Source: Promethearchaeota archaeon
GTDB taxonomy: Archaea > Asgardarchaeota > Lokiarchaeia > Sigyniarchaeales > Promethearchaeaceae
Assembly (NCBI GenBank): GCA_016933055.1
Contig: JAFGBS010000002.1
Location: 90,001 to 122,000, forward strand
Reading direction: 5' to 3'
Length of the DNA: 32,000 bases
A program made the position numbers and the translations under genes. Of this stretch, positions 10,647-31,811 are shown in pieces. The notes under the pieces are model-generated. The model was not told the DNA's origin. It saw only the letters and a list, made by a program, of their open reading frames with translations, and searched no databases. How positions within the stretch are numbered: the stretch's first letter is position 1; each line of letters opens with the position of its first letter.

Positions 10647-11513
10647 TTATAATAATAATAGGGTCATTGCCATTATTAGCATCCCAACCACAATTCCTGC
10701 TATAGTGAGATGTCCTTTTTTATCATATTTTTGCGCTGTTGGTAAAATCTCATCTAAGGAAATATACACCATCACACCCGCAATAAATCCGAGCATACCT
10801 CCAATTATTTGATCATTTAAAAAGGAAAATAGAATCAAATAGCCTAATGCGGCGCCCACTGGTTCAGCTGCACCTGAAAGAAATGAATACCAAAATGCTT
10901 TTTTCTTATTACCCGTAGCGTAATAGATTGGAATTGAAACGGAAATGCCTTCGGGAATGTTATGAATGGCAATTGCTATCATCAGTACTATACCAAGAGA
11001 TGTGTCGCGCAAAGCTGTACCAAAAGTAACAAGACCCTCGGGAAAGTTATGAATGGCGATTGCAAACGCGGTAATTAATCCAGTTTTCATCAAATCCTTT
11101 TTAGAGGATTCTGATATTTTCAGTTCTTTTTGTGGTTGTCGTTTTATTTGTGCTATAGGCGGAGTTCGCGATTGTTCAGCATCTTCTTCTCCTTCCATTA
11201 CAATGACGATGTGATGGGGATTTTCAACTTCGGGGATGATTAGATCTATCAGCCACATAAATCCAACACCAATAAAAAACAAACTTATCCCCCAAACCTC
11301 TCCCCACACACCTTGGGTTATTCCAATGGCCTCGATTGCTTGTGGTAATAATTCCACGAAAGAGATATAGGTCATTACTCCTCCCGATAAACCCAATGCA
11401 AATGATAAATATTCAATTTTAGGTTTCTTAATAAAATAGGCGATCAATGAGCCAATACCTGTGGATAAACCGGCAATAATTGTAAGTAAAAACGCAATTA
11501 TGACTGAATTCAT
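10647..11513 (-). CDS. zupT: ZIP-family divalent metal transporter
   Basis: GLSTGIG N-terminus, twin metal-site motifs HNFPEG and HNIPEG, SGAAEPVG and DEILP. AAGGAG ribosome-binding site upstream. Confidence 0.92.
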   Translation of the reverse strand: MNSVIIAFLLTIIAGLSTGIGSLIAYFIKKPKIEYLSFALGLSGGVMTYISFVELLPQAIEAIGITQGVWGEVWGISLFFIGVGFMWLIDLIIPEVENPHHIVIVMEGEEDAEQSRTPPIAQIKRQPQKELKISESSKKDLMKTGLITAFAIAIHNFPEGLVTFGTALRDTSLGIVLMIAIAIHNIPEGISVSIPIYYATGNKKKAFWYSFLSGAAEPVGAALGYLILFSFLNDQIIGGMLGFIAGVMVYISLDEILPTAQKYDKKGHLTIAGIVVGMLIMAMTLLLL

Positions 11514-11570: not shown

Positions 11571-14126
11571 ATGTCCTCCTTTTCAGAAAACTATTTGTAT
11601 AGGAAGAAACATGTTGAACTATTAAAAAGTAAGATGAGTAAAATGGAACCAGTACATTATTTGTTGCATTTGGAACCAGATCTTGAAAAATTTGTTTTTC
11701 TCGGTACAACTCAAATCACTATTCTTTCCGACGATACCATCGGGAAAGTGGTTCTCAATGGAAAATTCCTCAATATTTTGTCTTGCAAAATTAAGATAAA
11801 CGAGGAATACATTGCATGTGATTTTGACTATGATGAAAACAAAGAGGAAATAGTTGTTAAATTTCCACAAGAAATCTCTGGAAATTTTGAGATAAAGATC
11901 CATTACAAAGGAGAATTGAATGATAAACTACTAGGATTTTATAGAAGTAGTTATACAATAGAGGGACAAGAGGAAACAAAATATATTGCAACCACTCAAT
12001 TCGAAGAACGTTACGCTCGATGGGCTTTTCCTTGTTTTGATCAACCCCGATATAAAACTCCTTTTGATATTGAGTTTGTTATTAATGAGAATTTGACAGG
12101 AATTTCAAACTGTGCAGTTTCTGAAGAAATTATGCTTGAGAATGGTAAAAAGCTAGTGAAATTTGAACAAACTCCAAAGATGTGCACGTATTTATTGTAC
12201 TTTGGTGTAGGTGAATTCGAATATGTTGAGCAAAAAAGCGAGAATCTTACCGTTAGAGTGTATACTACTCCTGGAAATAGTCAATATGGGGAGTTAGGTC
12301 TGGAAATTAGTAAAAAATCTATAGAAATATTGGAAGAATTGACGGGAATTCCATACCCCATTTCAAAAATAGACAATATTGCAGTAAAAGATTTCCAATT
12401 TGGAGCTATGGAAAATTATGGAGCAGTGACCTATCGAGAACCGCTGATATTAGTTTATCCTGGAAAAACCTCAAAGTCATCCAGAACTCAAATTGTAATT
12501 GTTATTTGCCATGAAAATTCCCATATGTGGTTTGGTAATTTGGTTTCTCCAGCAGATTGGCAATATGTTTGGCTTAATGAGAGTTTTGCTTCATATTTTG
12601 AACGGGTTGTGACAGATCGTATTTATCCAGAGTGGAATATTTGGGATGACTTCATTTTGGATTCTACTCTTGGAGCTTTAACTCGAGACTCACTGATTAA
12701 CACTTTTCCTATAGAACTTCCGGGAGGAAAACCAATTGATATCAACACCGCTACGGCTCCAATAATTTATGACAAAGGCGCTTCTATCATAAGGGTTCTA
12801 AGTGATTTTTTGGGTGAAGAAAAATTCAAGTTGGGAGTTAAAAGTTTCCTGGACAAATATAAGTTTGATATAGCCAACACCGAACAATATTGGGCGGCTT
12901 TTGAGGAAGCTACGGGTGAACCTATCAAAAAATTTGCCGATTCGTGGGTTCATCAAAAAGGATACCCATTTATTACCGCGCATAAGGATGGTAATATTCT
13001 CAAATTACAGCAAGCTCGGTTTACTTATCTTCCTCACGAAACAGATACAACTTGGCTGATTCCCATATCCTATACTTTGTTCCTTAGCGATGGTACTCAA
13101 TTGGATAAAAAAACTGTAATGGAAGCTGCAACGATGGAAGTAGAATTGCCTGAGAATACGGTCACATACAAACTCAATACCCAACAAAAAGGTTTTTACC
13201 GCGTCTTATATACTGATGGCAATTTTGAAAAACTGGGTGAACTTATTGTTGAAAAGAAATTATCCCATCTGGATGTGTTTGGAATTCAGAACGATATTTT
13301 CAGTTTTACAATCCGTGGAGATTTCTCAGTTGACAAATATTTGGATTTTCTGAGTAAATATTATTCCCAAGAAGATAGTTATTTATCCTTACGAAACATT
13401 TCCGGAAATTTGAATTCACTTTATTTCTTTATGGATTCTAAACGCTCCCGTATCGCAGAAATTGGCCGAACAATGTCTGATCGTTACTTAGAGAAAATAG
13501 GACTAGAACCAAAAGAAGATGATAGTTTAGAAACCTCCCGAATACGAAATATCTTGTTATGGTCTTCTTTTATATTTGATTCCAAATTGGTGAAAAATTT
13601 TGTGAAAGGAAAATATGATGACTTTAAGAAGGATACTCCTATTCATGCCGACATTCTTAGTACTATGTACAGATCTTTTGCTGCCTATGATAAAAACTCG
13701 AAACATCTGTTTTTCAAAAAGCTAATGGACCCGAAAACCACAGGACAAGAACTATTATATCTGTGCCAAGCGATCGGAGAGGTTCGAAGTGAGCAAGATC
13801 TCAAAGAAATTCTGGACATGGTTTTAGACAAGATGCCATTGAATGTAAGATACATTCCCATATTAGTTGCTGCACAAAATGAAACAACCAAACCATGGTT
13901 ATGGAATTGGTATAAAGAACATGCAGCTATTCTAAAAGAAAAACTAACTCCCATGAATTTGGGGACGGTTCTAGTTGGACTTGCTTTCCATTCCGGTTTA
14001 GGAAGAGAAGAAGATGTGGGGATGGTGTTAGAAAAACTTGCGCAAGAAATGCCGGATCGAGAAGATGACATTAACATGGCTTTAGAATTGTTAAAGGTGT
14101 ATTCCACGGTACTATTCCGTAACTAA
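11571..14126 (+). CDS. M1-family zinc aminopeptidase (PepN / tricorn-interacting factor-like)
   Basis: GFYRS, TQFEERYAR.AFPCFD, GAMENYG, HENSH (HExxH) followed by WLNESFA, and IYDKGAS. The true start may be M22 (11634). Confidence 0.93.
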   Translation: MSSFSENYLYRKKHVELLKSKMSKMEPVHYLLHLEPDLEKFVFLGTTQITILSDDTIGKVVLNGKFLNILSCKIKINEEYIACDFDYDENKEEIVVKFPQEISGNFEIKIHYKGELNDKLLGFYRSSYTIEGQEETKYIATTQFEERYARWAFPCFDQPRYKTPFDIEFVINENLTGISNCAVSEEIMLENGKKLVKFEQTPKMCTYLLYFGVGEFEYVEQKSENLTVRVYTTPGNSQYGELGLEISKKSIEILEELTGIPYPISKIDNIAVKDFQFGAMENYGAVTYREPLILVYPGKTSKSSRTQIVIVICHENSHMWFGNLVSPADWQYVWLNESFASYFERVVTDRIYPEWNIWDDFILDSTLGALTRDSLINTFPIELPGGKPIDINTATAPIIYDKGASIIRVLSDFLGEEKFKLGVKSFLDKYKFDIANTEQYWAAFEEATGEPIKKFADSWVHQKGYPFITAHKDGNILKLQQARFTYLPHETDTTWLIPISYTLFLSDGTQLDKKTVMEAATMEVELPENTVTYKLNTQQKGFYRVLYTDGNFEKLGELIVEKKLSHLDVFGIQNDIFSFTIRGDFSVDKYLDFLSKYYSQEDSYLSLRNISGNLNSLYFFMDSKRSRIAEIGRTMSDRYLEKIGLEPKEDDSLETSRIRNILLWSSFIFDSKLVKNFVKGKYDDFKKDTPIHADILSTMYRSFAAYDKNSKHLFFKKLMDPKTTGQELLYLCQAIGEVRSEQDLKEILDMVLDKMPLNVRYIPILVAAQNETTKPWLWNWYKEHAAILKEKLTPMNLGTVLVGLAFHSGLGREEDVGMVLEKLAQEMPDREDDINMALELLKVYSTVLFRN

Positions 14127-14665
14127 ACTACCCATTTTTCCATGAGTAATTCATCTATATATTTTTTTTTCATATAAAACTGTTTTTGACGTATGCCAAT
14201 TTTTCGAAAACCTAATTTTTCATATAAATGAATGGCATAAGTATTAGTAACCAAGGTTCCCAAAACAATTTTCATTTTTCCGTTTTTCTTGGATTCTTCA
14301 ATAGCAAATTCAATTAAGTGACACCCTAGTCCCAGATTGCGGAAAGATTTGGAAATGATGATTCCCAGAAGACCTACATGTTCAGAAGCTTCCCATTCAT
14401 CATGGTGGATGGTACATTGCCCAACGATCGTCTTGTGGTTGGAGGTTGAATATTCTGCTACAATACACAAGTTATTATATCCGACTAATTCATTATACCA
14501 ACTGATTTTCTCGAATTTGTCTATTACTTTGGTGAATGAGGGCTGATATATTCCCTCCTCAATAACTTCATTATAATTATCCCATATATCATCCAAGTCC
14601 TCTTTGAGGATGTGTCGTAGGAGGATACGATTATTGTTTTTCAAGATAATGGTTTTTTGCGACAT
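14123..14665 (-). CDS. GNAT/RimJ-like N-acetyltransferase
   Basis: LGIIISKSFRNLGLG (acetyl-CoA binding motif A), N..AI.LYEKLGF and ELLMEK. Its stop overlaps the aminopeptidase stop. Confidence 0.85.
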   Translation of the reverse strand: MSQKTIILKNNNRILLRHILKEDLDDIWDNYNEVIEEGIYQPSFTKVIDKFEKISWYNELVGYNNLCIVAEYSTSNHKTIVGQCTIHHDEWEASEHVGLLGIIISKSFRNLGLGCHLIEFAIEESKKNGKMKIVLGTLVTNTYAIHLYEKLGFRKIGIRQKQFYMKKKYIDELLMEKWVV

Positions 14666-14777
14666 TTCAATCGAGTGAGATAGTGGTGCAAAGGTTTTTT
14701 GGAAGAAGATTCAAAGTTTTCTTTAAATTGTATCAATTAAGAAATGAAGAAAAATAAACATACAGAATTTGAGAATT

Positions 14778-15134
14778 ATGAGTCAAAAAGAAAATGAAAA
14801 AAAGGATCCCGATCATCCCATCAGTTTGGAAGAAGCGTTACAATCTAAACTTGCGCAAGAAAAACGCTTATTGGGACAAGATTTAGATTCGGACGAGAGA
14901 ACAATTATGGCTTGTTATCAAGAAAAAAATCGATTGATTCTTGATCGAATTTACATAATTTTCAATCAGACCCGAAAGAATTTGGATCTGTCATTAAAAA
15001 CCAAGTCAGAATTACGGGATAGGCTTGGAAGCCTTGCAGAGAAAGGATATTTGCGTATTGAAGGTTTTGTGTATGACGGAGAGGAAAGAGAAGCGTTTAT
15101 ATTGACTGAAAAAGGTGAAGAACTCGTTAAATAA
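14778..15134 (+). CDS. Hypothetical protein with predicted winged-helix fold
   Basis: ELRDRLGSLAEKGYL...REAFILTEKGEEL is a typical wHTH recognition helix and wing. ATG 14778 preferred over TTG 14769. Confidence 0.55.
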   Translation: MSQKENEKKDPDHPISLEEALQSKLAQEKRLLGQDLDSDERTIMACYQEKNRLILDRIYIIFNQTRKNLDLSLKTKSELRDRLGSLAEKGYLRIEGFVYDGEEREAFILTEKGEELVK

Positions 15135-15216: not shown

Positions 15217-17013
15217 ATGTCTGAATCTGATGAAAATTATGGAAATATACATGCTACGGAACATAAGGAAAAACCCTCCCGTTCTGGATTGTGTATTACA
15301 TTTTATCTAGTGTTATCCATTTCTTGTTTTACTTTAATGATCGGCGGATTATGGGCAATTATGGATATAATCCAACCTACAGGAAAATGGGAATGGTTTA
15401 AAGACCTCGGGATAATGTTACAAATCATCATCGCTGGTGGTTTTGGTATTATTGGTATTGGGGGTGTTATAGTACTTTGGTTACTGTATCCCAAAGGAAC
15501 ACGCCTTATCCATAAAATGCTATATCCTCCCATTACTAAAGAACAATTCGAAAAAGGCACTTTTCTTGCACGTTTTATAACTGCAGGTCTATTAATATCC
15601 ATTTTTATCATTGTTGTTGGTTTTGTACTTGCATTTATCGAATGGATTGTTGCAGAAGGCGGAGTAAGTTTTATCGGGTTCCTAAAATCCACACCTAACG
15701 GGTTACTTATTATGCTTTTCTCTTCGATGTTACTTGTATTCACTATTCTGGTAATTGTGTTTGTTTGGGTGTGGATTAACGGATATCAGAAAACTCTCAA
15801 ATTAATCTCGGATAACAATGCACGGATAGACAGAGCCCAAGTAAAGAAACTTGAATGGAATTCGGGTGTTAGTTTCTATATTATCGTTTTAATAAGCGTA
15901 TTGGGAGTAGCCCTAGGGGGTGCCTGGTATGGAATGGACATTTTTGTGTTTCCCATTGATTGGACGAACTTTGGAACTACCTTTTTAGTAATTGGTGGAT
16001 TAGGGAGTTTAGTATTTCTAGTTCTTATTGGGGGGTTAGTTCTATTCAGTCTAGGCAGCTATAAGATTAGTCATATGCTGTTTGCGCGTAAAGGGAAAAT
16101 CTCAGAAGAATTAGACACTCAGGATAAAAATTTAGCAGATTCGATTACAGTGACTTTGCTTATCGCAATCGCCCTCCTTATCATCGGTGCAATGGGCATG
16201 TTAGTGGATTACTTGATGAAGTTAGCGGAAGAGCAGTCCGGGGGGACTTTTCTTGAATGGCTAGTAACCTTGCCATCGTATGGGATATGGACGGTTTTAT
16301 TTAGTGGAATGCTATTTGTTGGAATTTGGGTTATGATCTTCATAATTTACGTATGGACCCATGGGTATTTCTTTTTTTTCAATGCGAATGCCAGAAAAGT
16401 GTTGCGAGATAATGAAAAAATTGAACGCGATAAGCATAATAACGCTCAAGTAGCATTTGGAGTGATCATTTACGTTCTAATCTGGTTGTGTGTATTTGGT
16501 ATTATATATGGAGCGATCTGGTGGGGAATGGAAGAATTTTCCGCACAATGGACCGACTCTACGACCAGAATCTCCTTAAAATTCCTAATTATTGAATCCA
16601 TGGGAAGTGTGTTCTTTCTTTTACTTACAGGGGGTTTGCTATTCGCTCGAAGATTAGTATTTTTTATCAGTAAAATGCTATTTGTTCGAAGAGAAGACAT
16701 TCCAGACAACGTAGAAAAACAAGATAAAGTAATTGCCCAAATCATAACTATTACTCTATTGGTGGCCATCGCATTAGTAGCGGTGGGTTCGTTTGGATTA
16801 TTAGTGCAGTTCTTGATAAATAGGTCTCTTGCACTATTAGGGATGGAAAACCTTATCGAAATTATTACATTTTTACCAAATGGTGTTCTATCGATGATAG
16901 CGAGTGGTTTATTGCTTATTTCTATTTGGATTTTGATTTTCGTTATTTTTGTGTGGACAAATGGGTACTATTTCTTCTATATTCGCTTCCTTCGAAGTAT
17001 TGCAAAGCAATGA
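15217..17013 (+). CDS. Uncharacterised polytopic membrane protein, ~12 TM, three tandem ~190-aa modules
   Basis: Twelve long hydrophobic segments. Modules start near Y30, Y221 and Y419 and end in WINGY, WTHGY and WTNGY. Confidence 0.8.
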   Translation: MSESDENYGNIHATEHKEKPSRSGLCITFYLVLSISCFTLMIGGLWAIMDIIQPTGKWEWFKDLGIMLQIIIAGGFGIIGIGGVIVLWLLYPKGTRLIHKMLYPPITKEQFEKGTFLARFITAGLLISIFIIVVGFVLAFIEWIVAEGGVSFIGFLKSTPNGLLIMLFSSMLLVFTILVIVFVWVWINGYQKTLKLISDNNARIDRAQVKKLEWNSGVSFYIIVLISVLGVALGGAWYGMDIFVFPIDWTNFGTTFLVIGGLGSLVFLVLIGGLVLFSLGSYKISHMLFARKGKISEELDTQDKNLADSITVTLLIAIALLIIGAMGMLVDYLMKLAEEQSGGTFLEWLVTLPSYGIWTVLFSGMLFVGIWVMIFIIYVWTHGYFFFFNANARKVLRDNEKIERDKHNNAQVAFGVIIYVLIWLCVFGIIYGAIWWGMEEFSAQWTDSTTRISLKFLIIESMGSVFFLLLTGGLLFARRLVFFISKMLFVRREDIPDNVEKQDKVIAQIITITLLVAIALVAVGSFGLLVQFLINRSLALLGMENLIEIITFLPNGVLSMIASGLLLISIWILIFVIFVWTNGYYFFYIRFLRSIAKQ

Positions 17014-19404
17014 TTACTTTTTTTCTTTATTATAATCATATTCTGCGATTTCACGTATTTTTTTTGCTGTTTTTTTTCCAATACCCGGGACTTGTTCTAG
17101 TTCGTCCTCAGCTGCAGTAAATATATTCTCGAGTGTTGAAAATGCTGTAAGTAGTTCTTGGGCTCGATATATATTAATCCCTGGTATTCCCGATATAATC
17201 TGCTCTTGCGCTTCTGCTTCCGAGGTAGTTTTTTTCGTATATACTTTGCCAATTGGAGTTTTCTCTTGATGGATTTTTTTTTCCAGTGCGATTAAGAGAT
17301 CAGCGGTTTCTGTAGCCGATTGAGTATACAACACACTTATCCGCATGTTCACGATGATACTGGCTAGCGCTCCTAAAATTGCGGTTTTTGATATGCTGAA
17401 TTGGTTAACTGGATTGCCTTCCAAGATAAGAATAGGAATATGAAAACTCTGAGAAAGATGATGTAATTCATCAAATAATCTTCCATCTTTAAGTGATTCT
17501 ACAAAATCAGAATCGGTTTTACGCTCTACTCCTACTTGTTCAGATAAGATATAATCTGCTACATTGAGAGTTTTTAATATTACGTCCATACCTTTCACAG
17601 CGAGCTCACGAACTACTGGTGATTGTGTTTCGCGGGTATCCGCAATAATGACTTGGCGTTTGGATTGAGAATCAGATGAAGGAGAAGAGTTTGATTGCTC
17701 TGTAACAGAGAGAAGAATTTCTGCATCCTTGATGCTATTTTCTTCTGATTCATGCATGAAATCTAGAATATTACCCATTTTTTGTTTTTTGGTAGATTTT
17801 TTTACTCCATTTTGTCCCGATGTACTTGTGTGAGAATTATTATAGTTTGCTAACACATGTTTCATTCGTTTTTCGCGTTTTTTTTCCGTATAATAATATC
17901 CTTCTTCTCGAGTTCCTTTTGCCATGAGAATATATAATTTACCTTCACTTTGCCTTCCTGTCCTACCACGGCGTTGTATAGTTCGGATTTCACTGGGTAT
18001 TACATCATAGAATATCACCAAATCACATTCTGCAATATCTAATCCTTCTTCTGCAACGCTAGTTGCTACCAGAGTGTTGATATCACCTGCACGGAATAAA
18101 TCCAGCTTTGCAATCTGTTCTTTTTGCGTCATCCCCTTCTCAATCTTTCTCCCTTTCTTCCGAGCTTGCTGTCCGATAAATTTCTCCGCTATTATGGACT
18201 CCGTATTATTGATAAACTCGACAATAGAATCTACCGTATCTCGAAAATTCGCAAATATCAATACTCGGGAATCTGGATTTTGTTGAAACTGTTGGTTTAG
18301 TAGATCTCTAATTTTTATTAATTTAGGATGCACAAAATCAGATTCCACTAAAGAACGAACTAATTGCATAGCCTTGCGATATTCTGTTGATTGCATTAAT
18401 TCATGAAGAGATTTTGAGGCTTTAGGAGTTTTTAATTCCGCTATGCACTTTTGATGGTATTTGTATAACGGATCGATTCCTTGGGCTTCCAGTAATTCCA
18501 GCATATGGGAAACTCGAATAGAATTCGATACTACTTTTTTCAAATAAAATGCATTTGTTAATTCCTCACTTGAAGCACTGGTGTCCCGAATCTTAAAGTC
18601 AATCCTCCGAGAGGAGGCAAGCAAATCTTTACGTGAAATTTTATTCAGACTGTAATGATCTAGAAAATTACTATTATATAGTTCCTTTTGGAAGATCTTC
18701 AGCATCGATTCCAAAATTTTCTTGGGTTGAAGGTATTCATTGGGAAGCTGAATTGGAATCCAATTCATCTGTACATCTTGGACATAAGGGGCTACATCGG
18801 GGCTTGTTTCCGAACGAATTTCTACATTTGAAATGTATAAATTTTCGCATACTTCTTGAATTTTTTCCTCATCCCCCCCCGGGGAAGCACTCATTCCTAG
18901 AATCAGACCGTGCGGATATTCTTGGTGATACATTTTCGCAATAAAGGTGTAAGCATAATCTCCCACTGCTCGATGGGCTTCATCAAATATAATCAAAGAA
19001 ACTTCCTTTAGATCTATTTTCTTATTTATAATATCATTTTGTAGAATTTGAGGAGTCAAAAACGCAATGGACGCATCGAGATATAATGTCTCTCGTTTTG
19101 TTGGAGGAACGGTTAACATAGGAAGTTGCCATTCTTCCAAGGTACTCATTTCAATAAATGATTGCTGGTGTTGTGCCACTAAAGGTTTTGTAGGAGCAAG
19201 AAATAAGATTTTTTTATCAGGTACTTGGGAATGAGTATATAATGCAAGCATGAGTGCAATAATGGTTTTTCCCATTCCCGTAGGGAGAACGACCAATGAA
19301 TTCTTTCCGATGCAAGATGCAAAAATGTTGGTTTGATAATCCCGCTGTTTCACTAGATTAGATTTAATAAAGGGTAGATCTAAAAATGTATCAGTATCGC
19401 TCAT
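17014..19404 (-). CDS. hef: Hef: FANCM/ERCC4-like SF2 helicase fused to XPF nuclease and HhH2
   Basis: PTGMGKT, DEAHRA, MSASPG, ATSVAEEGLDI, QRRGRTGR. Nuclease motifs ADTRE, ERKT..DF..S..DGRL. C-terminal IPGIN and VPGIGKKTA helix-hairpin-helix pair. Confidence 0.95.
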   Translation of the reverse strand: MSDTDTFLDLPFIKSNLVKQRDYQTNIFASCIGKNSLVVLPTGMGKTIIALMLALYTHSQVPDKKILFLAPTKPLVAQHQQSFIEMSTLEEWQLPMLTVPPTKRETLYLDASIAFLTPQILQNDIINKKIDLKEVSLIIFDEAHRAVGDYAYTFIAKMYHQEYPHGLILGMSASPGGDEEKIQEVCENLYISNVEIRSETSPDVAPYVQDVQMNWIPIQLPNEYLQPKKILESMLKIFQKELYNSNFLDHYSLNKISRKDLLASSRRIDFKIRDTSASSEELTNAFYLKKVVSNSIRVSHMLELLEAQGIDPLYKYHQKCIAELKTPKASKSLHELMQSTEYRKAMQLVRSLVESDFVHPKLIKIRDLLNQQFQQNPDSRVLIFANFRDTVDSIVEFINNTESIIAEKFIGQQARKKGRKIEKGMTQKEQIAKLDLFRAGDINTLVATSVAEEGLDIAECDLVIFYDVIPSEIRTIQRRGRTGRQSEGKLYILMAKGTREEGYYYTEKKREKRMKHVLANYNNSHTSTSGQNGVKKSTKKQKMGNILDFMHESEENSIKDAEILLSVTEQSNSSPSSDSQSKRQVIIADTRETQSPVVRELAVKGMDVILKTLNVADYILSEQVGVERKTDSDFVESLKDGRLFDELHHLSQSFHIPILILEGNPVNQFSISKTAILGALASIIVNMRISVLYTQSATETADLLIALEKKIHQEKTPIGKVYTKKTTSEAEAQEQIISGIPGINIYRAQELLTAFSTLENIFTAAEDELEQVPGIGKKTAKKIREIAEYDYNKEKK

Positions 19405-22198: not shown

Positions 22199-22864
22199 TT
22201 ATTTTGCTTTTTTCTTCGAAAATCCACATTGTGGACAAACCAATTGGGTAAATCCGACTTCATACCCTTCCAATCCCACTAATTCTGCATTACACACAGG
22301 ACATCGGGGGGAATAAGTAGGGAACCACTGTCCTTGAACATTAGGAGTAACTTTTAAATTATTAATCCAATTAGAAAATTGGTACATTTGAGGATTCAAA
22401 TTCATAGTTTTTTGTGCTTGTCGTGCTTCTTTTGGAGAAGATACGACTACAGCAAGGGATTTGATTTTATCCGGTTGATTGAGTAAGGTTAATGTCGCTA
22501 ATATTCCAGGTTTTCCCTCATTTCGTAAAAATTCTGCAAATTCTGGGGGTCCCACCCCAGCTAGTGCTCCATTCCCTCCATATTCCACTGCACGAGAAAA
22601 CAATATGTAAAAGTATCTCTCCCGGAAATCTTCTGCCCATACAAAAATCCATTGATGGGGTTCAAATTCTTGATTGTGGGAATCTACTATTCGCCTTAAC
22701 CCACTTTCGGCAAAATACCGTTGATCTGTTTGTATGTTCATAACAAGGTGCTGGAAAAATAGTTTTGCAATAGTGGGATAGCTACCATATATATCCTGTA
22801 TATCGGTAAGTTGCAGGGTCTGGGGGTGTTGTTTCCAACTAACAACGACATTGATGGTAAACAT
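22199..22864 (-). CDS. Hypothetical protein with C-terminal zinc ribbon
   Basis: 221-aa ORF ending CPVCNAEL...LVCPQCGF. No family recognised for the N-terminal ~180 aa. Confidence 0.7.
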   Translation of the reverse strand: MFTINVVVSWKQHPQTLQLTDIQDIYGSYPTIAKLFFQHLVMNIQTDQRYFAESGLRRIVDSHNQEFEPHQWIFVWAEDFRERYFYILFSRAVEYGGNGALAGVGPPEFAEFLRNEGKPGILATLTLLNQPDKIKSLAVVVSSPKEARQAQKTMNLNPQMYQFSNWINNLKVTPNVQGQWFPTYSPRCPVCNAELVGLEGYEVGFTQLVCPQCGFSKKKAK

Positions 22865-24523: not shown

Positions 24524-25243
24524 ATGTTTTCGAGAACGGGAAATGGATATGACCAATCAGTTTCGATGTTCAGCCCAGATGGGCGCTTGTTTCAAGTTGA
24601 ATATGCCATTGAGGCGGTTAGAAGAGGGACAACAGCAATTGCAGTACGAAATGAAGATAGTGTTATATTTGCTGTAGAAAAGCGAGGAAGCAATCCTCTT
24701 CAAGAGCGATTGGGCTCAGAAAAGATATTTAAGATTGATAACCACATCGGTGCTGCGATTGCGGGTTTAACGGCTGATGCACGAGCATTAATCGATCAAG
24801 CGCGTATTCAAGCACAAATTAATATTTTAAATTATGATGAAAAAATCTCTGTTGCAGATGTTACTCGTGAAATCTGTGATCAAGCACAGCAATATACCCA
24901 AATTGGGGGACGACGTCCTTATGGAGTGTCATTGTTGATTGGTGGGATTGATCCCAAGGGAGACCCCCAGATATTTATGACCGATCCATCAGGAGCCTAT
25001 TGGGGTTATTTTTCATGTGCAATCGGTTCTGGACAACAAAATGCTCGAACATTTTTAGAAGAAAATTATAAGAAAAACATGAAATTTGAAGAATTGCTTA
25101 AACTTGCGGTTAGAACGATAAAACAAGTTCTGGAATCGGAAATCACTGATGAGATGTTTGAAGTTGCTTATATACGCAAAGAAAATCTGGATTTAACAAT
25201 CCTAAGTACTGAAGAAAAACAAAAACTCCTCAAAGAAATCTAG
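24524..25243 (+). CDS. psmA: Proteasome alpha subunit
   Basis: GYDQSVSMFSPDGRLFQVEYA, KIFKIDNHIG, GLTADAR, RRPYGVSLLIGG, DPSGAY and AIGSG. Confidence 0.97.
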   Translation: MFSRTGNGYDQSVSMFSPDGRLFQVEYAIEAVRRGTTAIAVRNEDSVIFAVEKRGSNPLQERLGSEKIFKIDNHIGAAIAGLTADARALIDQARIQAQINILNYDEKISVADVTREICDQAQQYTQIGGRRPYGVSLLIGGIDPKGDPQIFMTDPSGAYWGYFSCAIGSGQQNARTFLEENYKKNMKFEELLKLAVRTIKQVLESEITDEMFEVAYIRKENLDLTILSTEEKQKLLKEI

Positions 25244-25326
25244 GTAGAAGGTAAACAGAAACAGAAATTTCTATTTTTTTGTTCTTTATATTCAGTGAGG
25301 ATCTAATAGGATAGAAGGTAAAAAAT

Positions 25327-26136
25327 ATGTCTTTAAGATCTGGTGGAGAAAAACGAGTTGATTTGGGCAAATTTACCATTGCCCGGTTATACAAGCAAAA
25401 TAAGAATGTAGAAATGATTGTAGAGCCGGAACAGGCATGGAATGCAAAAAAGAAAATTGACGCTCACATCCGTGCACTTAAAGAAGAGAATGAAAACGCA
25501 GAATTTAGTCTGGAAGACCTAAAACAAATGCCAGAAATCGACATTAATAATATTTTTGAAGGTTTTATTGTATTTGAAGACGCTATGCGTGGAAAAGAGC
25601 ATTCTGATTCAGATTTAGAACAACTCTTCGGTAGTACGGATCCGGTGGAAATTGCATACCAAATGCTCTATGATCGAGATACAGAATGGCAATGGACGAA
25701 AAAACAAAGAGATGAAAATTTTGAAAAGAAGAAGCGTCAAATTATTGCAATCATTGCAAAAAATTGCATAAATCCCCAAACTAAAAAGCCTCATCCCCCG
25801 CAACGAATAGAGAAAGCTATCACCGAAGCAAAATTTAATATTGATATTATAAAATCTGCGGAAGAGCAAGTAAAGAATGTAATTAGTGCAATTTCGTCAA
25901 TAATTCCCATCCGTATGGAAAATATTGAGTTAGCTGTAAAAATTCCAGCTAGTTATGCAGCAAAATCTTATAATATTGTGGAACGTTACGGTAAAATTAA
26001 AAAGGACGAATGGCAGAATGATGGGTCATGGGTAGGAATCGTGGATCTTCCTGCAGGCATGGAAGCAGAATTTTTAGATAAGATAAATAAGCTTACCCAT
26101 GGCCGTGTACAAATAAAAATACTAAATCGATCATAA
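25327..26136 (+). CDS. Ribosome maturation factor SBDS/Sdo1 with an insertion in domain I
   Basis: VF.DA..G, FGSTD..EIA, INPQTKKPHPPQRIEKA, AEEQV..VIS.I..IIPIR and W..DGSW...V..PAG; syntenic position after psmA. Confidence 0.93.
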   Translation: MSLRSGGEKRVDLGKFTIARLYKQNKNVEMIVEPEQAWNAKKKIDAHIRALKEENENAEFSLEDLKQMPEIDINNIFEGFIVFEDAMRGKEHSDSDLEQLFGSTDPVEIAYQMLYDRDTEWQWTKKQRDENFEKKKRQIIAIIAKNCINPQTKKPHPPQRIEKAITEAKFNIDIIKSAEEQVKNVISAISSIIPIRMENIELAVKIPASYAAKSYNIVERYGKIKKDEWQNDGSWVGIVDLPAGMEAEFLDKINKLTHGRVQIKILNRS

Positions 26137-26146
26137 TTGAGAAAAA

Positions 26147-26887
26147 ATGACAGAAAATAATCATGAAATTCGTGAGATCGTCATCCCAGGGGAAATATTA
26201 ACGGAAGATAAGAGTTTTATTCCTGGGAGAGGCGCTATTCGACAAGGGGATAGAATTATCTCCATATATATCGGATTGAAAGAAGTCCGAGGAAAATACA
26301 TCAATGTTGTTCCTTTACGCGGTAAATATCGTCCAGAGATCGGTGATAAGGTGATCGGGAAAATCGTTGATATTACTAGCGTAAAATGGCGGGTTGATAT
26401 TAATGCAAAAGACACCGGGATTTTAAAACCCCGTGATGCCATTGACGTCTATGATAAACGTTCACAACGAGGAAGAAAAAAATCATCCAGAGAACTTGAA
26501 GCAGAAGCGATGAAGATGTATGAATTGGGAGATATGTTAATCGCTAACGTAGTTTCTGTGGATCGGGTGAGTGATCCCGTATTAACTACTGTGGGAGAAT
26601 CACTCGGGAAAATTGATGAAGGGACTATTATTGGTATCGATGTTCCCAAAATCCCACGCATTATTGGAAAAAAAGGTAGTATGATTAAGTTACTGAAAGA
26701 TTTAACTACTTGCCGTTTATTTATTGCAAAAAATGGATTGGTGTGGGTTAAGGGGGCCACGTCCGAATATGAAAAATTATGTATTGAAGCAATTCGAAAA
26801 ATCGAGCGAGAAGCTCATACTACAGGATTAACTGATAGAATAAACTATTATATTCAAGAAAAGAAAAAGGAAAGAGGTTTAAAATGA
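26147..26887 (+). CDS. rrp4: Exosome RNA-binding cap subunit Rrp4 (S1 + KH)
   Basis: VIPGE.L, YRPEIGDKVIGKI, WRVDIN, PRIIGKKGSMI and A.NG.VWV. Confidence 0.96.
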   Translation: MTENNHEIREIVIPGEILTEDKSFIPGRGAIRQGDRIISIYIGLKEVRGKYINVVPLRGKYRPEIGDKVIGKIVDITSVKWRVDINAKDTGILKPRDAIDVYDKRSQRGRKKSSRELEAEAMKMYELGDMLIANVVSVDRVSDPVLTTVGESLGKIDEGTIIGIDVPKIPRIIGKKGSMIKLLKDLTTCRLFIAKNGLVWVKGATSEYEKLCIEAIRKIEREAHTTGLTDRINYYIQEKKKERGLK

Positions 26888-27840
26888 CGATATTAATACC
26901 AGAAGAATACCCCAAAAAACTGATAGATAAAAATGGGAAACGATTAGATGGACGAGCTTTGGATGAATTACGACCTTTCAGTTGTAAAATTGGGGTTCTT
27001 GCCAATGCTGATGGTTCAGCTTATGTGGAGCATGGAAAAAATAAAATCTATGCCGGTGTGTATGGACCTCGAGAGGTTCACCCCCGACATTTGGCACGAC
27101 CCGATAGAGGAATTATCCGAGTAGATTACCGGATGACCACCTTTTCCGTCCATGAACGGAAAAGCCCTGCTCCCAATCGACGAGAACGAGAAATATCAAA
27201 GATAATCGAAGATGCGTTAGCACCCACGTTATTTTTGGAATTATACCCCAATTCAGCTATTGAAGTATATGTACAAGTAATAGCTGCCGATGGTGGAACA
27301 CGCTGTGCAAGTACGACAGCCGCTTCCCTTGCACTGGCAGATGCGGGTTTACCGCTGAAATCATTGGTAGCAGCCGTTGCAGCAGGAAAAGCGGATGGTG
27401 AAATTATATTAGATTTGGGAGATCTGGAGGATAAAGCAGGAACGGCAGATGTTCCGGCAGCAGTACGCATGATTGATGAAGAATTCACTTTACTTCAATT
27501 CGATGGGGAGATGACTCCTGAGGAGTTTGAAAAATCTATTAAACTCATTAAAAAAGGTGCTCGAGAAATATTTGCAAAACAAACTGCAGCAATAAAGGAA
27601 AAATTTGATACTGTACGCAAAGAAACGGAAGAAGAGAACAAAAAGATTGAAAAATTGGTACCGCCTGAAGAAAAAATAACCCATGCGAGTGGTACTAAAG
27701 AAGAAGAAAAAGCTGGAGAAGAGAAATCAGATAAAGCAGAGGAGATCAAGGAAGAAAAAGAAGACCCCTCAGATACAAAAGAAGAAGAAAAGAAACCGAA
27801 AAAAGAGAAAGAGGAAAAGAAATCGGAGGAGAATAAATAA
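26884..27840 (+). CDS. rrp41: Exosome catalytic subunit Rrp41 with ~70-aa highly charged C-terminal tail
   Basis: RLDGR..DELRP, ADGSAY.E.G.NK, GPREVHPRH, RRERE.S, DGGTRCA and DL..LED; ATGA overlap with rrp4. Confidence 0.96.
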   Translation: MTILIPEEYPKKLIDKNGKRLDGRALDELRPFSCKIGVLANADGSAYVEHGKNKIYAGVYGPREVHPRHLARPDRGIIRVDYRMTTFSVHERKSPAPNRREREISKIIEDALAPTLFLELYPNSAIEVYVQVIAADGGTRCASTTAASLALADAGLPLKSLVAAVAAGKADGEIILDLGDLEDKAGTADVPAAVRMIDEEFTLLQFDGEMTPEEFEKSIKLIKKGAREIFAKQTAAIKEKFDTVRKETEEENKKIEKLVPPEEKITHASGTKEEEKAGEEKSDKAEEIKEEKEDPSDTKEEEKKPKKEKEEKKSEENK

Positions 27841-28658
27841 TGGATACCCCCCAAGTCATTTCTACTGTCCAAAGGAAATACATATTGGATTTATTAAAAC
27901 AAGGAAAAAGAATGGATGGAAGAGGCTTTTTAGACTTCCGTGAAGTAAGAATTGATGACGATTTAATTCCGAAAGCAGAAGGGTCCGCATCAGTACATTT
28001 AGGAGACTCATTCATCATCACAGGGATAAAATATGATGTAGGAACACCATTTCCAGATTCCCCAGATGAGGGTGTAGCTACATGTATGGCAGAATTCATT
28101 CCCTTTGCCTCTCCTATGTTTGAAAGTGGTCCCCCAGATGTCGAAGCCGTTGAAGTTGCACGTGTTGTAGATCGAGGAATCCGTCATGGAGATTGTATTG
28201 AATATAAAAAACTCTGCATAAAAGCAGGAGAATTAGTATACATTTTGTTCATTGATATGTATGTAATGAACCATGCTGGTAATTTAATTGATACTGGTGC
28301 GATCTCATCTATGACAGCTTTGTTAACAACAAAATTACCCACAGCTAAAATTGAAGATGGGAAAGCAGTATGGAATGGGGGGTATATGCTAGTTCCCATC
28401 AATCAAATTCCCCTTTCTGTGACCTTTGGAAGAATCCAAGATTATGTATTCGTTGATCCGGTTATTGACGAAGAACTTGTGCTAGATGGTCGTGTTTCTT
28501 TTGCAGTTAATGAGAAAGGTCAAATTTGTTCTATGCAGAAATCCGGAGAAATAACTTGGACAGAAGAGGAACTGATTAAATATTCCAAGATAGCTGTAGA
28601 AAAAGTGAATGAATTGCGAAATAAATTAAATTTGCGGCAATATGTGCCAAAACTCTAA
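27840..28658 (+). CDS. rrp42: Exosome subunit Rrp42
   Basis: RMDGR...DFR, AEGSA.V.LG, PFPDSPDEG, ESGPP, ARVVDRGIR and GNLID; TAATG overlap with rrp41. Confidence 0.96.
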   Translation: MDTPQVISTVQRKYILDLLKQGKRMDGRGFLDFREVRIDDDLIPKAEGSASVHLGDSFIITGIKYDVGTPFPDSPDEGVATCMAEFIPFASPMFESGPPDVEAVEVARVVDRGIRHGDCIEYKKLCIKAGELVYILFIDMYVMNHAGNLIDTGAISSMTALLTTKLPTAKIEDGKAVWNGGYMLVPINQIPLSVTFGRIQDYVFVDPVIDEELVLDGRVSFAVNEKGQICSMQKSGEITWTEEELIKYSKIAVEKVNELRNKLNLRQYVPKL

Positions 28659-29397: not shown

Positions 29398-29766
29398 ATG
29401 AAAGAAATGTCTAACCAAAAAATCCCTCCGGCTCTCCAAGAGGAAATTAACCAAGCTCAAAAACTTGAAGAAGAATTACAAGTATTAAACTCCACAATTA
29501 GAGTCACCAAGAATAATATCACTGAAATAGAAAGTACGATCAAAGAATTAACAGAAACCGAAGACAACGTGGTGGTTTACAAGCTTGTAGGGCGTATTTT
29601 CATTAATTCTGAAAAACCTAAAGTTCTGGAGGATTTGAAAGATGATCTTAGTAACTTAGAAATGCGTCTTAAACGATTTGAGCGTAATTACGAGTCAAAG
29701 AAACAACAATTCGAAGAATTAGCAAAAAAAATAAATCAAAAAATACAAACTCAGTCGCAGGCCTAG
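29398..29766 (+). CDS. pfdB: Prefoldin beta subunit
   Basis: IPP.LQ, coiled coil, VYKLVGRIFI beta-hairpin, second coiled coil. The start may be 29407. Confidence 0.92.
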   Translation: MKEMSNQKIPPALQEEINQAQKLEEELQVLNSTIRVTKNNITEIESTIKELTETEDNVVVYKLVGRIFINSEKPKVLEDLKDDLSNLEMRLKRFERNYESKKQQFEELAKKINQKIQTQSQA

Positions 29767-31077: not shown

Positions 31078-31641
31078 TTAATTGGTGATAATGGTCGAAG
31101 AGACTTTCATATTCACAGAAGCTTTTAATACCGTTTCTACCAATTTGAAAAAAGCCTTATCAATCTGAATATTTTCTTTTGCAGAGGTTTTAAGAAAGGA
31201 AAAAGCATTAATGCGGTTAGAAATCTGTTGAATGTCGTTATTGGAAATATCCTCTTGAAGATCACATTTATTTGCAATTAGCAAGGTAGGGATAGTCTCA
31301 GAAACATACTCCCTCGCATCCTTGTACCAAAAGTCTTGAATCTGATAAAATGTCCGTTTTCGACTTAAATCCCCCACAAATATCAAACCTTGACTTCCTG
31401 AATAATAGGTTTTGCGCATTGTTTCCCATCGGTCCTGACCCGCAACCTCAAATATATTGAGAGATACTAAATACGATTCATCATCGAGAGATAATTCGAT
31501 TTTCTTGATAAATACATTTGATCCTATAGTGGGACGATAATCACGTGCAAAAAGATTATCAACATACCGACGTATGAGTGAAGTTTTGCCCGTAGCGAAA
31601 TCCCCTATAATGCAAATCTTCATTTTTACTAATTGTGTCAT
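31078..31641 (-). CDS. Rab-like small GTPase with atypical ExxG G3 motif
   Basis: G1 GDFATGKTS, G2 PTIG, G3 FEVAGQ, YYSG, G4 ANKCD, G5 KTSAK. ATG 31641 preferred over 31680. Confidence 0.88.
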   Translation of the reverse strand: MTQLVKMKICIIGDFATGKTSLIRRYVDNLFARDYRPTIGSNVFIKKIELSLDDESYLVSLNIFEVAGQDRWETMRKTYYSGSQGLIFVGDLSRKRTFYQIQDFWYKDAREYVSETIPTLLIANKCDLQEDISNNDIQQISNRINAFSFLKTSAKENIQIDKAFFKLVETVLKASVNMKVSSTIITN

Positions 31642-31811
31642 ATGCCAACTATTCCCCTTGAAAGAAGAACGTATGATCACTCTTTTAATAGATACTTATT
31701 GGAAACTTTTTAAAAATAATTTAAATTCCCCAAATAATCACCATGACAGTTAATGATTTAAGATCGTGGTTCATTTTTATTGTCATAGAAAACTAAAAAA
31801 AAGTGAACAAT

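Follow-up and report, generated by a model that had tools for sequence, protein, structure and literature searches.

The 32,000-nucleotide stretch of Promethearchaeota archaeon DNA analysed here (hereafter the window; its GC content of ~36% makes it low-GC archaeal DNA) carries at 15217-17013 (+ strand; ATG start, stop codon included) a whole gene for a 598-amino acid (aa) membrane protein, P0001, with 12 transmembrane (TM) segments. This gene is a real one, encoding a selectively maintained integral membrane protein of an undescribed family. Its product consists of three modules of ~190 aa (M1 to M3), each comprising four TM segments, and comparison of sequence profiles indicates that each module is in turn an old duplication of a hairpin of the form TM, short helix, TM.

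The protein opens with a tail (aa 1-24, 15217-15288, +) that is placed in the cytoplasm by the positive-inside rule and begins with MSESDEN, a stretch that is invariant across the eight full-length three-module orthologues retrieved (65–79% identity; sources JGI, ENA and NCBI). It is followed by M1 (aa 21-205, TM1-4, A-type; 15277-15831, +), which can be divided, on the basis of the hhalign comparison and the module model described below, into hairpin 1a (aa 21-108, 15277-15540, +; TM1, a short interfacial helix with the sequence KWEWFKD, and TM2) and hairpin 1b (aa 109-205, 15541-15831, +; TM3, a short helix with the sequence FIGFLKS, TM4 and the terminal WINGY). A basic cytoplasmic linker with 6 K/R (aa 189-219, 15781-15873, +) leads to M2 (aa 206-400, TM5-8, B-type; 15832-16416, +), and a second one, also with 6 K/R (aa 382-413, 16360-16455, +), leads to M3 (aa 401-598, TM9-12; 16417-17010, +), designated B-prime since it is a copy of the B-type module.

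The repetition is well supported statistically. Smith–Waterman local alignment gave scores of 170 for M1/M2, 124 for M1/M3 and 345 for M2/M3. Relative to shuffling inside 12-residue blocks, a procedure that keeps the hydropathy profile, these scores correspond to z-scores of 10.1, 7.2 and 18.0, respectively, and the observed score was attained in 0 out of 500 shuffles; relative to full shuffles the z-scores are 18, 10 and 44. The hidden Markov model (HMM) of the family matches the open reading frame (ORF) three times (E = 8.4e-58, 5.3e-45 and 2.3e-44; 186, 150 and 148 bits for M1, M2 and M3). In the order M1/M2/M3, the shared motifs are GGLWAIMD/GGAWYGMD/GAIWWGME in the first TM segment of the module, LIHKML/KISHML/FISKML after the second, ITAGLLISI/ITVTLLIAI/ITITLLVAI, PNG/PSYG/PNG and, at the end, WINGY/WTHGY/WTNGY; they coincide with conserved columns of the wider family. 

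Similarity between the two halves of a module escapes pairwise comparison (z from −0.7 to 1.5, not significant) and becomes detectable at the profile level only. When half A was compared with half B by hhalign, using an 86-sequence module alignment, a probability of 97.5% and a score of 60.9 over 86 columns were obtained; control scores were 15.5 for a reversed half, 17.3 on average for block-shuffled columns (standard deviation 3.9, maximum 25.5) and 9.9 on average for fully shuffled ones. The original prediction, made from the letters of the DNA and a list of its ORFs, had proposed precisely such a hierarchy, two 2-TM hairpins per module and three modules per chain. Both levels are borne out by these analyses and by the module model, and the motifs on which the proposal was founded are all present in the ORF.

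AlphaFold2 modelled M1 with confidence from the same alignment of 86 sequences (predicted local distance difference test score, pLDDT, 91.7; predicted template modelling score, pTM, 0.81). In the numbering of the module model, the predicted helices span residues 4-32, 37-43 (short), 46-82, 96-126, 132-138 (short) and 141-184, and the short 7-residue helix is separated from the next TM segment by two residues only. Predicted cytoplasmic segments hold 34 K+R in 189 residues versus 6 in 97 for the predicted outer loops; because of this charge bias both termini are assigned to the cytoplasm (N-in, C-in) and the three modules, that is, the six hairpins, are taken to be parallel.

Conservation is concentrated at the ends of the helices. 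Five elements make up the family signature: G..W...D where TM1 reaches the outer side, PTGK...F within loop 1, K/R-G following TM2, a G preceding TM4 and W.NGY following it. The signature is complete in M1, which keeps the ancestral set (G43, W46, D50, P54-T-G-K57, F61, K93-G94, G162 and W186-x-N-G-Y190), while M2 and M3 retain G, W, D/E, G and W.(H/N)GY and are without PTGK...F. The outer loop 1 residues D50, PTGK and F61 are 94–100% conserved in single-module proteins and M1, and are lost from M2 and M3. The outer ends of TM1 and TM3 carry the near-invariant D50 and the pair Q/E142 and E/D143. Acidic residues are absent from TM2, TM4, TM6, TM8 and TM12, and TM10 has only E460, near its outer end. 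The strict glycine-zipper motif does not occur in P0001. 

The proportion of non-synonymous differences (pN) is 0.15–0.24 per module versus a saturated proportion of synonymous differences (pS) of ~0.72–0.75, the values for the whole gene being 0.21 and 0.72 in comparison with a genome of the same genus. Since pN is far under pS in each module, all three are maintained by purifying selection. M1 is the most conserved among the eight orthologues (mean identity 78%), followed by M2 (71%) and M3 (67%).

Searches with P0001 against Pfam, NCBIfam and PDB sequences returned nothing above threshold, and no PDB entry at all, in keeping with the earlier statement that no transporter signature can be recognized. 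Structural comparisons of the module model led to the same outcome. Foldseek against the PDB gave no match at E ≤ 0.001 (all rows had E ≥ 2, with a best TM-score below 0.3), the ESM Atlas, searched by shape, yielded TM-scores no higher than 0.34, and the best of 48,161 chains in VIA-align reached Z = 5.6 (coiled-coil hairpins), which is under the stated noise level for helical proteins. Clusters of the MFS family and other transporters reached TM-scores of at most 0.37, with both the good module model and the poor full-length model, and have no Pfam match in the protein; within these comparisons no known transporter fold was matched. Language-model neighbours were unnamed Asgard clusters, DUF3169 (0.75–0.78) and DUF4013 (0.79), all in the noise range. 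As modelled, the module fold is without a convincing match among described families or solved structures.

Two names were considered and rejected. SUR7/PalI (claudin-like 4-TM proteins, PF06687) scored 16.9 bits versus a cut-off of 29.6 (E = 0.0054), with module 1 only and in 1 of 25 family members. Two single-module members of the family (P0115 and P0117) were automatically named by JGI after an enzyme, ‘sterol desaturase/sphingolipid hydroxylase’; this name was discarded because P0001 has neither a His-box motif nor a matching Pfam domain, and no such Pfam match was found in the members scanned.

An exhaustive HMMER scan over 1.84 billion representatives identified 60 relatives of one, two or three modules, none of them longer than ~606 aa. 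A profile search raised the number to more than 500 proteins, none with a Pfam domain; those that a source names are, apart from the two with the JGI enzyme name, almost all ‘hypothetical’ and come from Asgard metagenome-assembled genomes (MAGs). The distribution was then analysed in a sample of 301 genomes across the phylum. The family is present in 6 out of 6 genomes of the window's own taxonomic family and in 69 out of 69 of a sister family of the same order, as compared with 0 out of 223 in all remaining families of the phylum. The class contributed two more matches, weak or broken, from two other families (G237:C110:28605-28991, interrupted by 2 TGA codons, and G294:C204:81253-81820, interrupted by 1 TAA codon; E = 1e-14 and 3e-14), which could be copies in decay or relatives that have diverged strongly. 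When the window's own family was swept completely, 13 of its 14 genomes were positive, the single negative genome being 74% complete; no second copy was found in the window's genome (91% complete). This undescribed protein family is, among the Asgard genomes searched, confined to Lokiarchaeia, and occurs in nearly every genome of the order Lokiarchaeales. 

Two-module members are present in Ca. Harpocratesius repetitus, classed by its describers as Lokiarchaeia, Lokiarchaeales, Prometheoarchaeaceae (PMC8813620), and in Ca. Lokiarchaeum ossiferum (NEF87_002429; P0198). NEF87_002429 and UYP46144 are mentioned in no paper found, and a search of the literature on Asgard transmembrane repeat proteins yielded nothing relevant. 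Many single-module proteins (records JBHL...) derive from a series of MAGs to which NCBI gives the labels Thor-, Hod-, Hermod-, Odin- or Heimdallarchaeota. The taxonomy-guided genome search found the family in one class only; these labels probably do not reflect the true placement of the series.

The number of modules per chain depends on the lineage. In the sister family the modules are encoded by separate genes, usually one of ~200 aa plus an unlinked, divergent one of ~255 aa, and in three genomes two ~200-aa genes stand in tandem. Stand-alone homologues of ~190–250 aa, for which the original prediction had advised a search, are thus the rule there. All six other genera of the window's own family, including Ca. 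Lokiarchaeum ossiferum, have one two-module ORF each (430–515 aa), and the three-module ORF, a single frame of 595–600 aa, was found only in the window's genus (G000, the window's genome, and G234). 

A maximum-likelihood tree of 82 modules, with branch support from the Shimodaira–Hasegawa-like approximate likelihood ratio test (SH-aLRT), unites M2, M3 and the C-modules of two-module proteins in one clade (SH-aLRT 96). Within it M2 and M3 are sisters (100), and their neighbours are the C-modules of the closest relatives with two modules (88); M1 clusters with the N-modules that these relatives have (100). This placement shows that the third module was copied from the second, and indicates a history of A-B followed by A-B-B' rather than a triplication. 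The step from single to fused modules, for its part, we infer by parsimony from a tree that is unrooted.

The surroundings of the gene were examined for functional hints. Upstream are an M1 aminopeptidase (11571-14126, +), a GNAT acetyltransferase (14123-14665, −) and, directly upstream and on the same strand as the membrane gene, a small winged-helix-like ORF (14769-15134, +) with a weak HTH_34 match, whose true start is likely the ATG at 14778. A 76% identical copy of this ORF occupies the equivalent position in the same-genus genome G234, and a 46% identical one, with PadR/HTH_34-like matches, lies upstream of the two-module gene in genus g73. It is possible, judging from this arrangement, that the ORF is a local regulator of the membrane gene. 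Downstream and convergent is a gene for a 796-aa Hef helicase/ERCC4 nuclease with a helix-hairpin-helix domain (17014-19404, −). The two genes abut with zero spacer (window 17011-17016), their stop codons ending at 17013 and 17014. The unit of winged-helix ORF, membrane gene and convergent Hef is common to the window's genus and genus g73 (L099).

Other lineages show other neighbourhoods. At 20 out of 20 sister-family loci the ~200-aa single-module gene lies on the same strand between a gene for an FGGY sugar kinase (XylB-like; 376 bits versus a cut-off of 380) and one for a HerA-like DUF87 ATPase (~503 aa). This triad (L004-L023, L028-L032; e.g. L030:4710-8565) is usually preceded by an unannotated ~225-aa protein homologous to the window's ORF 22199-22864. 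In the window the FGGY kinase lies 3 kb from the membrane gene on the opposite strand, and the other genera of the window's family have lost the link to the kinase. Ahead of the divergent ~255-aa paralogue in the sister family there is in every case a ~150-aa protein encoded on the same strand (L033:5882-6319, L034:7533-8009, L035:7560-8012). It has a single TM segment and two zinc ribbons, one of them LITAF-like and the other C-terminal; elsewhere, LITAF-like domains are known from membrane proteins of eukaryotic endosomes. 

In the genus Harpocratesius znuB, znuC and the gene of a DtxR-like repressor precede the two-module gene on its strand, and gcvT lies downstream. In Ca. Harpocratesius repetitus (L025:2587-7522; also L026 and L027) the cluster reads znuA (divergent), znuB (ABC-3), znuC (ABC ATPase), a DtxR/MntR-like repressor and, last, the two-module gene. 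A link to metal homeostasis or uptake is possible for that genus only. In L. ossiferum the two-module gene lies between phosphofructokinase and gcvT. The conserved neighbourhoods appear to be synteny blocks of limited depth, and offer at most a hint of local regulation by small HTH (helix-turn-helix) proteins.

Elsewhere the window contains typical Asgard housekeeping genes. The archaeal proteasome/exosome superoperon is intact (24524-28658, +: proteasome alpha, SBDS, Rrp4, Rrp41 and Rrp42) and prefoldin beta is encoded at 29398-29766. Eukaryote-like small GTPases are represented by a Ras-family protein with a C-terminal zinc ribbon (6678-7292, −), a 402-aa Gtr1/RagA-like GTPase (7544-8752, +) and a second Ras-family protein (31078-31680, −). 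A tandem TldD/PmbA metallopeptidase pair (471 and 453 aa) is found at 2818-5595 (+), and a ZIP zinc transporter at 10647-11513 (−), 3.7 kb upstream of the membrane gene.

What, then, could a protein of this design be doing? The explanation that we favour, with a probability of roughly 0.55, is that the module is a protomer and that P0001 is an A-B-B' fusion of such protomers in a laterally packed membrane assembly. The building block would be the ~190-aa four-TM module with both ends in the cytoplasm, derived from the ancient hairpin duplication. Existence of stand-alone homologues makes it plausible that the three-module protein consists of covalently joined protomers. Since all repeats are parallel, the assembly would be a bundle or a ring whose axis of rotational pseudo-symmetry runs along the membrane normal; channels and rings typically have parallel repeats, and carriers inverted ones. 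Gene fusion would fix neighbouring protomers and permit their specialization, M1 keeping the outer-loop motif that M2 and M3 have lost. Since viable chains come with one, two or three modules, the assembly should be open-ended or size-variable, or else have a module count divisible by 1, 2 and 3.

Several observations weigh against this explanation. The full-length AlphaFold2 model, computed from the eight-orthologue alignment, is unusable for judging how the three modules pack (pLDDT 42, pTM 0.24), and the ESM Atlas full-length model reaches a pTM of only 0.46. The unrooted tree, as said, gives the direction of fusion by parsimony. TM cores are nearly without polar residues (4 of the 12 have none), which fits a hydrophilic pore poorly, and no helical periodicity of conservation was detected that would mark a lining or a lipid face. 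Neighbourhoods differ by lineage with no consistent partner or substrate, and in the window's genome the HerA-like orthologue is on another contig, unlinked. A three-copy complex prediction of the stand-alone module scored 0.00, which counts neither for nor against self-association.

For the function of such an assembly we can offer a tentative guess, held with clearly less confidence than the assembly itself: a channel-like conduit, possibly for cations, whose mouth would be formed by the conserved acidic or amide residues at the outer TM1 and TM3 ends of each module. Leads towards such a role are these residues, the znuB, znuC and repressor neighbourhood in Harpocratesius and the parallel orientation of the repeats. 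Somewhat more doubtful still is the full proposal of a new ring- or pore-forming assembly of novel-fold four-helix protomers, with a stoichiometry set by gene architecture as in ATPase c-rings and an outer acidic ring serving as a cation-selective mouth.

Almost as probable as the conduit is a membrane organiser with a purely structural role. The modules would then lie side by side in open-ended or variable arrays, tetraspanin- or MARVEL-like in role though not in ancestry, and the number of fused modules would be free to vary. Such a role would suit a protein that is almost wholly embedded in the membrane, has very apolar TM cores and conserves mostly Gly and aromatic residues at both interfaces. 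It would likewise suit the tolerance of one, two or three modules, and a family that is near-universal in one order, close to single-copy there and accompanied by no conserved partner of an enzymatic or transport kind. However, the protein has no soluble interaction domain, and near-invariant D50 and K57 point to a specific site more than to generic packing.

The original prediction had gone further than fused protomers and envisaged a covalently fixed pseudo-trimer of a normally homo-oligomeric 4-TM protein. In its closed form, in which the modules surround a central pore as a ring about a three-fold pseudo-axis and so mimic a homotrimer of single modules, this reading overlaps with the conduit. 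In its favour are the stand-alone modules of the sister family and the fact that one chain holds three parallel modules alike in size and topology, and the idea of fused protomers survives. A strict trimer is nevertheless unlikely. Two-module fusions prevail and are probably the older fused state, being found in six genera that include the nearest relatives of the three-module clade, and such chains would leave leftovers when building a trimer of modules. The A-B-B' history does not suggest one either; the three modules are unequal, M2 and M3 being without the outer-loop motif of the family, and no three-fold model was obtained.

Still less probable is a monomeric secondary transporter in which, by analogy with mitochondrial carriers, the three repeats of a 12-TM protein would form one translocation path. 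The count of 12 TM segments, hairpins whose short helix recalls carrier repeats in outline, and the FGGY kinase (directly upstream of the single-module gene at all 20 sister-family loci and near the gene in the window) can be cited in its support. However, 4-TM and 8-TM forms are usual in relatives, so that 12 TM segments are not required, the kinase linkage is gone in other genera of the family, and the protein combines the low TM-scores mentioned above with no carrier signature and no Pfam transporter match above curated cut-off, either in itself or in its relatives. Finally, an artefact, be it a decaying gene or three neighbouring single-module genes joined in error during assembly or sequencing, would find a source in the tandem genes of three sister-family genomes but is very improbable, given the same unbroken three-module frame in eight proteins of differing source, a second genome of the genus that has it with conserved synteny, conserved linkers and a pN far below pS in all modules.

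Lokiarchaeales contain cultured Asgard archaea, which serve as models for the archaeal ancestor of eukaryotes. A membrane protein that occurs, unannotated, in practically all searched genomes of this order and is absent from the other Asgard lineages searched is probably tied to an envelope or a physiology specific to Lokiarchaeales. The family also presents a natural series, from hairpin to 4-TM module, tandem genes, two-module fusion, three-module fusion and then specialization, which is useful for understanding how pseudo-symmetric membrane proteins arise from oligomers. What is new is the family itself; it exemplifies a familiar evolutionary principle. Should the assembly turn out to be a channel or ring of a new type, a new fold class would be gained, and a merely structural filler protein would be a tidy example of that principle. 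The L. ossiferum homologue NEF87_002429 makes localization and expression testable in culture.

It remains to compare the protein with known systems. DUF4013 (PF13197) resembles it in comprising small polytopic membrane proteins of archaea and bacteria whose function is unknown. The UniRef name of NEF87_002429, which refers to this domain, was not reproduced: PF13197 (gathering cut-off 26.9 bits) had no match at E up to 10 in P0001, the L. ossiferum homologue and four others, nor did it match at the locus in G000, G303, G306, G210 and G219. When the module profile was aligned by hhalign with an Asgard DUF4013 member (35.2 bits to PF13197), the probability was 7.5%, with a single sequence on the DUF4013 side.

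Two-pore-domain K+ channels, which have 4 TM segments and two pore hairpins per chain, share with the module the order TM, short helix, TM, twice per 4-TM unit, and fusion of protomers as an evolutionary route. The selectivity filter TxG[YFL]G is absent from the Loki protein, however, and no Pfam ion-channel match exceeded the curated cut-off. The short helix is followed after just two residues by the next TM segment, which leaves no re-entrant filter loop. Mitochondrial carriers (SLC25) are likewise built of tandem parallel repeats of a TM segment, a short amphipathic helix and a TM segment, arranged with rotational pseudo-symmetry. In contrast to them, the Loki protein has six hairpins rather than three, its relatives have two or four hairpins per chain, and P0001 has neither a match to Mito_carr (PF00153) nor the PX[DE]XX[KR] signature.

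In principle the nearest precedent is offered by the proteolipids of V/A-type ATPases, to which homology is not detectable. No HMM match to ATP-synt_C (PF00137) was found at E up to 10 in the Loki protein and the family members tested, Foldseek rows for Vo c subunits were at chance level (E 2.4–8, TM-scores 0.21–0.28) and these subunits were not in the top rows of VIA-align. The ion-binding carboxylate in the middle of the second proteolipid helix is missing in the hairpins of the Loki protein, whose turn lies outside the cell and holds the short helix, and no ATPase genes are nearby. The likeness is one of design: in both cases a 2-TM hairpin was doubled to a 4-TM unit and then fused in lineage-specific numbers, with the repeats parallel. 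Among proteolipids, a chain contains one hairpin in the F-type c subunit, two in V-type c, three in Methanocaldococcus jannaschii K and 13 fused ones in Methanopyrus kandleri, and these variable fusion numbers are compatible with a single ring assembly.

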